A DNA stretch of 64,000 nt, from positions 70,713 through 134,712 of the forward strand of contig DAOMSJ010000003.1 of assembly GCA_035446285.1 (NCBI GenBank), written 5' to 3'. Shown in pieces: positions 45,631-64,000 of this stretch; positions within the stretch are counted from its first letter, which is position 1, and each line of letters begins with the position of its first letter. A model generated the notes under the pieces. The model made no database searches. It was not told the DNA's origin and worked only from the letters and a program-made list of their open reading frames with translations. The DNA comes from Anaerolineales bacterium. Lineage in GTDB: Bacteria > Chloroflexota > Anaerolineae > Anaerolineales > UBA11579. A program made the position numbers and the translations under genes.

Positions 45631-45702
45631 GCGGGTGTCGCCAAGTGGTAAGGCACTTGCTTCCCAAGCAAGTATGCGTGGGTTCGAATCCCATCACCCG
45701 CT
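45631..45702 (+). tRNA. tRNA-Gly (anticodon CCC)
   Basis: Acceptor stem GCGGGTG/CACCCGC, anticodon arm CTTGC-TTCCCAA-GCAAG, T arm GTGGG-TTCGAAT-CCCAT, discriminator T. CCA is not encoded. Confidence 0.9.
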
Positions 45703-61326: not shown

Positions 61327-63168
<1,842 letters not shown>

Positions 63169-63174
63169 GGCAGA

Positions 63175-63597
63175 AGAATCCTCCAACAAGAAAGACAATG
63201 AGCCGCTGCTGGCGGTTTTGTCAGCAGGGTTACCCCGGCAGCCTTGTGCGCCAGCTTTGATTCTGGAGGGAAATTCGGGGGCGGGTCTCCCGGAGTGGCA
63301 TCCGCTGATCTACGCAAGCACGTGGACGGCCTTCGGCCGGCCACTGCGCTTGCTGATGCAGTTTGCAAAAAGCGCAAACTGCACCTGTATTCGATTTTCG
63401 CAGCCCCGTTAGGGGCTACTTATCTTCGCCGTGAAGCGGAGCGAAGCAATCAGCAAGCCGTGCGGCCACTATACCAGCCACGCGGCGAATGCGCCTTTTG
63501 CCTTCGCCCGCGCAAGCCACGAACAGTTTCACCGTTCGTGAGCTTGCGCAAGAACCAACTCAACCTCGTCACCCGGCAAAATACCGGGCCGTGCGCT
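63175..63597 (-). ncRNA. glmS-ribozyme-like 5' leader, apparently interrupted by a structured insert of about 240 nt
   Basis: Minus strand reads A-GCGCAC, then hairpin CCCGG-UAUUUUG-CCGGG, then U-GACGAGG-UU-GAGUUGG (63597 down to 63555). This is the order of cleavage site, P1 and the conserved GACGAGG in known glmS ribozymes. Further 3' it reads UAGAUC-A-GCGGAUG-CCACUC (63312 down to 63293), matching the conserved ...AUC...GGCGGAUGCC... core. CCACUC can pair with GAGU(U)GG as P2. AGAAUC (63264-63259) pairs with GAUUCU (63180-63175) next to the SD. This has not been verified with a covariance model. Confidence 0.45.
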
Positions 63598-63665
63598 ATT
63601 CCCTCAAATGTAGTATTTGTGTCTATCCGGCTTTTTTCACCTCAGATTTATCTGTAGTTGGCAAG

Positions 63666-63671
63666 ATTATA
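63666..63671 (-). promoter_or_regulatory. Candidate -10 hexamer (TATAAT on the minus strand) for the glmS leader
   Basis: Forward attata at 63666-63671. The nearest TTGAAC-like -35 is 20 nt away, which is a non-ideal spacer. Confidence 0.25.
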
Positions 63672-63856
63672 CCCAGCTAGACGGGTAAATTGTTCAAGTC
63701 AGGTGAACGGCGCACTCAAACCCGCATGGTAAAATCATTCGGTTGTAAGCATCTCTAAGGTTTCTGCAGTACGTTCTCGCGCTGCCACTACATTAATGAA
63801 GACGTTGCATCCTCCTCAAGTCTTTTGCCCTGCGTTGTCAGGGCTGTATGCCGTAG

Positions 63857-64000
<144 letters not shown>

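Follow-up and report, generated by a model that had tools for sequence, protein, structure and literature searches.

A predicted glmS ribozyme with two lineage-specific peripheral expansions in the leader of an Anaerolineales glmS gene

The stretch of Anaerolineales bacterium DNA analyzed here (assembly GCA_035446285.1, contig DAOMSJ010000003.1, positions 70,713 to 134,712; hereafter the window, 64,000 nucleotides [nt] long, to which all coordinates refer) carries the gene glmS on the minus strand at 61327 to 63168. The gene encodes a 613-residue glutamine--fructose-6-phosphate transaminase whose translation begins MCGIVGY; NCBI names as the same enzyme a protein of identical sequence (100%) from a metagenome-assembled genome of the Anaerolineales. 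An mreB-like gene, starting at about 63862 (63862 to 64000, plus strand), is divergent from glmS; the 693 nt between the two are nearly all glmS leader, and this synteny is common to all close relatives. Leader, ribozyme and glmS are all read on the minus strand. Between 63609 and 63200, in the 5' untranslated region of glmS and upstream of its ATG at 63168, we found an oversized RNA that, judged from its sequence and from those of its relatives, is probably (probability of about 0.8) a true glmS ribozyme, i.e., a member of the class that cleaves itself in dependence on glucosamine-6-phosphate (GlcN6P), bearing two lineage-specific peripheral expansions. It is an unusual structural variant of a known RNA class and not a new kind of RNA.

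An earlier note on this DNA had quoted two clusters of ribozyme-like motifs, and all of its strings were found on the minus strand, its coordinates being accurate to within 1 to 2 nt. The first cluster, at 63599 to 63555, reads AAUA/GCGCAC-GGCCCGGUAUUUUGCCGGGU-GACGAGG-UU-GAGUUGG (AUAGCGCAC..GACGAGGUUGAGUUGG); the second, about 240 nt further on at 63312 to 63287, is UAGAUCAGCGGAUGCCACUCCGGGAG, that is, UAGAUCAGCGGAUGCC-ACUC-CGGGAG. Both in the comparison of leaders and in the alignment to the covariance model R1 described below, the core strands were colinear in the canonical order A/GCGC, GACGAGG, UCGA and (N)GCGGAUGCC. The complete canonical order of elements is A/GCGC, P1, GACGAGG, P2, UCGA (P2.1), CAGCGGAUGCC (P2.2), P3/P3.1 and P4/P4.1, the last with a GNRA loop.

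The R1 alignment places the predicted cleavage site, A(-1)/G1, at A63597/G63596, followed by GCGC. The sequence AGCGC is invariant in 29 to 30 Chloroflexota ribozymes, and its CGC (63595 to 63593) is the predicted 5' strand of P2.2, with GCG at 63305 to 63303 as its partner. Next come the P1 hairpin GGCCCGG-UAUUUU-GCCGGGU (63590 to 63571), which covaries across the family, and the core strand GACGAGG (63570 to 63564), of which all but the first G is invariant in 29 relatives and which includes the 5' strand of P2.1, CG at 63568 to 63567. The 5' strand of P2, GAGUUGG (63561 to 63555), pairs with CCACUC (63298 to 63293), leaving one bulged U. The earlier assignment of GAGU(U)GG/CCACUC to P2 was borne out by covariation with GAGGG/CCCUC and GAAGG/CCUUC in relatives, P2 varying in a compensatory manner across the family as well as between the window's clade and its compact relatives.

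In the middle of the leader, a UAAG linker and the hairpin hp2 (UAGCCCC-UAAC-GGGGCUG; 63422 to 63401), which are present in all Chloroflexota relatives and of which the base of hp2 covaries across the family, are followed by the conserved joining strand GAAAAUCGA (63399 to 63391), whose C63393 and G63392 would form the 3' strand of P2.1. This strand is 100% identical in the clade, its AUCG is invariant in 29 relatives, and its A63391 is equivalent to B. subtilis A56. The core strand GAUCAGCGGAUGCC (63310 to 63297), invariant in the clade and near-invariant in the family, supplies the 3' strand of P2.2 as well as G63302, the counterpart of B. subtilis G67; the core AUC..GCGGAUGCC pointed out previously is retained in the window. 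The 3' strand of P2 leads into the P3 hairpin CGGG-AGACCCGCC-CCCG (together 63298 to 63276), then into a linker, AAUUUCCCUCCAGAAUCAAA (63275 to 63256), and into P4 (GCUGGCG/CGCCAGC) and P4.1 (63241 to 63222, with a GUAA tetraloop), which with their A-rich internal loops span 63255 to 63208 and align column for column with those of relatives. The earlier note had likened to the P4 domain a more distal helix, AGAAUC (63264 to 63259) with GAUUCU (63180 to 63175), which is not where P4/P4.1 lies. The pseudoknot P3.1 joins CCGC in the P3 loop (63284 to 63281) to GCGG (63206 to 63203), the latter aligning with GUGGC/AUGGC/GCGGG of relatives. Both P3 and P3.1 covary across the family, P3.1 as GCCAC/GUGGC, GCCAU/AUGGC and CCCGC/GCGGG.

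Aligned with the B. subtilis ribozyme, the window core matches G36 to C75 residue for residue except at two insertion points. The B. subtilis sequence in this alignment reproduces G36, A37, C38, G39, A40, C54, G55, A56, U61, G67 and C75 in the numbering of PMC11602151. GACGAGG was mapped to G36-G42 through the residue numbers in that paper, and the P2.1 assignment rests on the pairs C38-G55 and G39-C54 reported there (PMC11602151). The fourth P2.2 pair of B. subtilis, C5-G63, is represented in the window by an A opposite an A (63592/63306; AGCGCA...CAGCGG). Since this A/A replaces C5-G63 throughout the Chloroflexota lineage, P2.2 has 3 base pairs (bp) in the window and in all Chloroflexota relatives, compared with 4 in the ribozymes of the Rfam family RF00234.

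Relatives were collected by a protein-guided scan of one genome per species, which gave Anaerolineae/Chloroflexota loci with GlmS identities of up to 72%, and by a metagenome scan, which gave none closer than 81% GlmS identity; a set of nearer assemblies is described below. Most of the scanned relatives carry GACGAGG 180 to 390 nt upstream of glmS. Their consensus reads GGGAAAGACA/GCGCAUG-[P1]-UGACGAGGAUGAGGG-UUC-[hp1, about 17 nt]-CUAAC in its 5' part and [hp2, variable]-GAAAAUCGAAAGAUCAGCGGAAGCCCUC-[P3]-..CUUUCCCUCC..-[P4/P4.1]-[P3.1] in its 3' part, and the window has the same order of elements, including GAAAAUCGA at 63399 to 63391. The comparison with related leaders, suggested at the outset, thus showed the same element order in Chloroflexota glmS leaders. 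When 30 compact Chloroflexota ribozymes were aligned, a hand-annotated structure that included P3.1 received strong support: 87% of its cells paired, against 36 to 43% with slid partners, and 45 of its 57 pairs were changed on both sides. P1, P2, P3, P4 and P4.1 can all form in the window; in the 30 relatives, P1, P2, P3 and P4.1 had covariation support, while P4 was only 50% paired because MAFFT misaligned it.

We built R1 from 29 compact Chloroflexota ribozymes (147 positions, from the cleavage site to P3), leaving out the window's clade. It matched the window at 63602 to 63274 over all 147 positions with 52.6 bits (E of about 3e-11), the runner-up in the 64 kb scoring 7.8 bits. This single match across both halves of the leader establishes homology and upholds the proposal of a glmS ribozyme correctly oriented upstream of glmS. 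Only two long gaps interrupt the alignment: one of 123 nt falls within hp1 and the other, of 79 nt, in the loop that follows UCGA. With filters off, R1 split this match into two of 40.9 and 22.1 bits, likely because a match of 329 nt is longer than the length scanned at one time; the alignment came out whole under the default banded search. Run against the intact leader, a sequence profile derived from the full-length alignment of the family hit three separate pieces; after deletion of 63549 to 63427 and 63388 to 63314 it gave one end-to-end match of 82.1 bits (E = 4e-25). Deletion of 63313 to 63554, the excision proposed in the earlier note, removes the essential GAAAAUCGA; the profile then still matched in two pieces and colinearity was not restored.

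RF00234 itself, at its gathering threshold of 37 bits, had no match on the intact window sequence. A permissive Rfam scan of 63100 to 63800 found model positions 108 to 157 at 63258 to 63208 (11.1 bits, E = 5.2), which is the P4/P4.1 piece in the correct place and on the correct strand and is the sole RF00234 match in the window. That scan matched the insert to no other Rfam family, the PtaRNA1 and RFPL3-AS1 hits being set aside as chance-level. Homologous leaders show how the RF00234 score depends on spacer length. On compact leaders the model scores 38 to 47.5 bits, and six of the loci L001 to L020 pass it end to end, each with a local gap of 57 to 85 nt in the P2a region. The score was 47.5 (L168) and 40.0 (L087) with a spacer of 58 nt, 30.4 at 93 nt and 29.6 at 97 nt, and homologous leaders with a spacer of at least 171 nt gave no full match. 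Since the score falls as the spacer lengthens, the miss is an effect of length and not of non-membership. The absence of an RF00234 hit, which the earlier note would have counted against a ribozyme, was confirmed, and it is explained by insert length. Riboswitch censuses will accordingly undercount glmS ribozymes in Chloroflexota, a whole Anaerolineales clade lying below the Rfam threshold, and a lineage model or a length-tolerant search recovers the oversized ones.

The position of GAAAAUCGA in the middle of what had been taken for one insert of about 240 nt, where it had been overlooked, means that there are two insertions. The proposal of a single insert replacing P2a does not hold: the first expansion, E1, lies in the P2-to-P2.1 joining region and the second, E2, after UCGA, with GAAAAUCGA between them. 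E1 (63553 to 63423) is an enlarged hp1, about 130 nt in place of the simple hairpin of about 17 nt of compact relatives; it has a UCUU/AAGA closing stem and the hairpins E1a (63549 to 63510), E1b (63509 to 63439) and E1c (63438 to 63427), and is followed by UAAG and hp2. E2 (63390 to 63311) is made up of two hairpins, E2a (63385 to 63355) and E2b (63353 to 63314), inserted in the loop closed by A56-U61, which follows UCGA and is otherwise 4 nt long. The two expansions flank GAAAAUCGA, so that the 2-bp P2.1 strand lies between stretches of about 155 nt and 80 nt.

Both expansions recur at these two sites in seven further loci whose GlmS proteins are 93 to 99% identical to that of the window (L081 to L086 and L170), each taken from an independent assembly of NCBI, JGI or Logan origin. 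Within the clade, E1 ranges from 85 to 152 nt and E2 from 76 to 84 nt, and the E1a/E1b sequences are wholly replaced in L084 to L086. The length differences are not multiples of three, so no open reading frame is conserved across the expansions. The 242-nt insert folds far better than its shuffles (z = -9.0). All eight clade members fold individually to the same E1/E2 shapes (z of -4.4 to -10.8), the exception being E2 of L082 (z of -1.8), which has a different minimum-free-energy fold, and the shape is kept even where hairpin sequences are wholly replaced. Covariation in the eight sequences was scored on alignments made by sequence alone. In E2, 90.7% of the cells were paired, with 9 doubly changed pairs versus 3.2 ± 1.3 in shuffles and 1 to 3 in slid controls; in E1, 94.4% were paired, with 22 doubly changed cells versus 8.2 ± 2.0 in shuffles. 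The structure of the expansions is conserved, and the covariation is supportive of real RNA structure. E1b is also about 44 nt longer in the window and L081 than in L082 and L083 (at about 63483 to 63440, minus strand). With this extra RNA, GCGAAGGC can pair either with the proximal GCAUUCGCC or with the distal UUGCUUCGC; the extra segment has the look of a recent duplication or insertion inside E1.

Beyond this clade, expansion size is graded. The ACGAGG-to-CAGCGG spacer measures 256 nt in the window versus 43 to 138 nt in 52 leaders outside its lineage. Hairpins at the E1 site are therefore normal in Chloroflexota, and of the insertion that the earlier note called unusual, it is the size of E1 and the presence of E2 that remain so. 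The loop after UCGA is 4 nt long in 50 of the 52 outside leaders; it is 3 nt in L112, and L041 has a different sequence there. Only in the window's lineage does it reach 25 to 85 nt, with about 85 nt in the window. Intermediate insertions of 48, 25 and 34 nt are found in this loop in L088 and L169 (both 81% GlmS identity) and L089 (77%), respectively, and L087 and L168 (80 to 81%) are compact with the same mreB-glmS synteny. Arranged from compact to intermediate to large, these leaders record how a small ribozyme gained helices step by step, and they suggest that the expansions of the window grew in this manner, much like the expansion segments of rRNA. The bracketing of the P2.1 strand by long insertions, in a core that has stayed under strong selection, is a natural experiment on which core sites tolerate large domains, which is relevant to the engineering of glmS-based switches and to folding studies. 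In another subgroup (L004, L005, L017, L019 and L099 to L105), the ribozyme core is kept through P3, the leaders are much shorter, and the usual CUUUCCCUCC linker and P4/P4.1 appear to be lacking.

We then compared the rates at which the parts of the locus change. Identity among the eight clade members is 67.7% at the third codon positions of glmS, 73 to 74% in E1 and E2, and 98 to 100% in the core, where 45 of the 47 columns that run from GAUCAGCGGAUGCC past P3 into the linker are invariant. Since the core is near-invariant while third codon positions and expansions drift, it is under selection with the expansions in place. Of the two possibilities left by the earlier note, this favors a ribozyme with large insertions over a disrupted one, although with two expansions instead of one. 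A core disabled by its insertions would hardly have been kept in this state, and the RNA presumably still cleaves itself in response to GlcN6P and so would lower glmS expression. Each expansion being closed on itself, its ends would be held together, and the double-pseudoknot core would still be able to form. Selection appears to act on the expansions mainly by keeping them self-contained and not through any function of their own.

Several observations weigh against an active ribozyme with largely passive expansions. One is the failure of RF00234 on the intact sequence described above. The complementary strands of P2.1 and P2.2 (CG/CG and CGC/GCG) are present but invariant and hence silent on covariation, a lack already noted for the whole family in PMC2258182. 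P3.1 is just 4 bp here, and P4.1 has two mismatches. The load of about 235 nt around the 2-bp P2.1 strand might slow or misdirect folding, a concern that arises because the glmS core, a double pseudoknot, is described as only marginally stable (PMC11602151). Finally, the covariation statistics for E1 and E2 are modest because the clade sample is small (8 sequences, 7 to 8 of them distinct) and closely related.

Some of these points would fit a ribozyme inactivated by the inserted RNA, its motifs being relics and glmS being regulated otherwise: the failure of RF00234, the bracketing of a very short P2.1 strand by inserts, and the slight weakening of P3.1 and P4.1. A relic would decay, however, and here the core stays 98 to 100% identical against 68% of third codon positions although all members carry the inserts, and the changes in P1, P2, P4.1 and the expansions are compensatory, not random. 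We therefore consider inactivation very unlikely. Even harder to credit is that the extra 240 nt are a recent mobile-element insertion (a miniature inverted-repeat transposable element or a remnant of an insertion sequence) or an assembly artifact. A short TA..TA does flank E2 (GAAUA...GUAGA) and the insert is rich in hairpins, yet a BLAST search of the insert against the window and 80 related loci found no second copy, just chance matches of 11 to 22 nt. In addition, both sites are occupied in seven independent assemblies, graded intermediates exist in more distant relatives, and two separate insertions, not one, would have to be explained.

The most serious competitor, which we still regard as improbable, accepts an active ribozyme and sees in E1 and E2 functional add-on modules instead of near-neutral accretions, so that the ribozyme would gain a second regulatory input; such modules might dock a protein or a second ligand, act as a second sensor, or aid folding or thermostability. 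In its favor, E1 and E2 hold their fold despite sequence drift, expansion sizes rise stepwise along the lineage, and the clade conserves the unpaired or short elements AAGAUA(A)G, CGCUUCACGGCG of E1c, GAAUA and GUAGAU, some of this conservation extending to the 81% relatives. On the other hand, the insert matches no Rfam family, hairpin loops and lengths vary freely, with E1a/E1b entirely exchanged in three members, the 73% identity of E1/E2 is close to the 68% of third codon positions, and compact sister lineages manage without expansions. An active glmS ribozyme whose expansions are self-contained accretions accommodates these data best.

In comparison with the RF00234 ribozymes of B. subtilis, Thermoanaerobacter tengcongensis and B. 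anthracis, the window RNA occupies the same place in the 5' untranslated region of glmS and shares A/GCGC, P1, GACGAGG, P2, UCGA, (C/A)GCGGAUGCC and P3/P3.1, as well as P4/P4.1 with a GNRA loop and A-rich internal loops. At about 410 nt it is longer than the Rfam consensus (about 170 nt). Its P2-to-P2.1 joining region measures about 160 nt versus 3 to 4 nt, its loop after UCGA about 84 nt versus 4 nt in B. subtilis and ordinary Chloroflexota, and P3 is separated from P4 by about 15 nt of additional linker. With the compact Anaerolineae ribozymes (L007, L087 and L168) it shares the order of elements, hp1/hp2, GAAAAUCGA, CUUUCCCUCC and a purine-rich 5' flank; unlike the window, these have an hp1 of about 17 nt and a 4-nt UCGA loop, and many pass RF00234. 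In the closest compact relatives, glmS is divergent from mreB, as in the window. The expansions also resemble, by analogy only, rRNA expansion segments and the peripheral domains of RNase P and group I introns, which are self-contained, lineage-specific helices at tolerant surface loops and change quickly in sequence while keeping their fold; these are different RNA families, with no homology. McCown, Roth and Breaker reportedly described, in RNA in 2011, rare glmS variants from Deinococcus-Thermus, a phylum other than that of the window, in which stems are added inside or beside the catalytic core and the supporting substructures are altered. Our literature search on glmS ribozymes of Chloroflexi/Anaerolinea and on P2a found nothing relevant.

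The linker between P3 and P4 has two possible partners outside the core. The lineage linker CUUUCCCUCC, which is AAUUUCCCUCCA in the window, complements the run of purines that immediately precedes the cleavage site, and RNAalifold pairs GAGGGAA (63605 to 63599), the 5' strand of a helix H0, with UUCCCUC (63272 to 63266). The linker's CCUCCA (63269 to 63264) is in turn complementary to the glmS Shine-Dalgarno sequence UGGAGG (63185 to 63180), a candidate partner that first surfaced as the longest complement in a noisy k-mer complement search for P3.1. Segments of the putative switch include UUCCCUCC along with GAGGGAA and the nucleotides flanking the Shine-Dalgarno sequence. Column-based covariation of flank, linker and Shine-Dalgarno sequence failed because the register slides by 3 nt between subgroups and MAFFT left the Shine-Dalgarno sequences unaligned, and we therefore compared cognate with permuted duplex energies in 46 leaders (5000 permutations). 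For flank and linker, the cognate energy was -11.96 against -10.23 ± 0.25 when permuted (z of -6.9, 0/5000), and for linker and Shine-Dalgarno sequence, -13.62 against -11.92 ± 0.30 (z of -5.8, 0/5000). Reversed-sequence controls for both pairings were much weaker (z of -0.5 to -3.3). The two pairings overlap, and are hence mutually exclusive, in 46 of 46 leaders. The linker of L008 is entirely different (CCAUGCAG) and matches that leader's own 5' flank (GCAUGG) and start-codon region (CUGCAUG).

These pairings led us to the tentative proposal, somewhat less likely than not to be true, that the Chloroflexota linker, including that of the window, is a cleavage-operated anti-Shine-Dalgarno switch. 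Before cleavage, UUCCCUC of the linker would be held by GAGGGAA, 7 to 9 nt 5' of the scissile bond. Cleavage induced by GlcN6P would let the holding strand leave on the detached 5' fragment of about 60 nt, and the freed CCUCCA could then pair with UGGAGG and block glmS translation. Neither the flank/linker nor the linker/Shine-Dalgarno element is in the Rfam consensus, and our literature search found no description of such a switch. If the proposal is correct, cleavage in this expression platform would act on translation directly and not only via RNase J-type decay, a new way for self-cleavage to control gene expression. Two other pairings were set aside. The 5'-proximal GGAGGUG, a purine-rich control segment of the same leaders, showed no cognate advantage as a partner of the linker. 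The pairing of the AGAAUC/GAUUCU helix is lost in close relatives, and this helix cannot extend CCUCCA/UGGAGG in antiparallel register.

Upstream of the ribozyme, a TATAAT at 63671 to 63666 (minus strand) is the likely -10 element of the glmS leader. A scan of the leader's minus strand called no terminator-like or promoter-like site, the TATAAT having been missed for want of a good -35. Most relatives with a long leader have TATAAT 56 to 85 nt upstream of the cleavage site, and a short-leader subgroup has it at 25 to 28 nt. About 20 nt downstream of the TATAAT lies a Shine-Dalgarno-like motif, GAGGUG (63643 to 63638, minus strand); in 43 of 57 leaders, a motif of the GGAGG/GAGGUG type precedes the cleavage site by 28 to 53 nt (mostly 33 to 48 nt). 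Such a motif may stabilize the uncleaved mRNA from its 5' end and, after cleavage, would no longer be part of the 3' product.

The only other Rfam matches at gathering score were a tRNA in the window at 45631 to 45702 (plus strand), whose anticodon loop, CUUCCCAAG, gives the anticodon CCC (Gly) when read by eye, and a glycine riboswitch in the relative L017, at locus positions 597 to 686 upstream of its glmS region.

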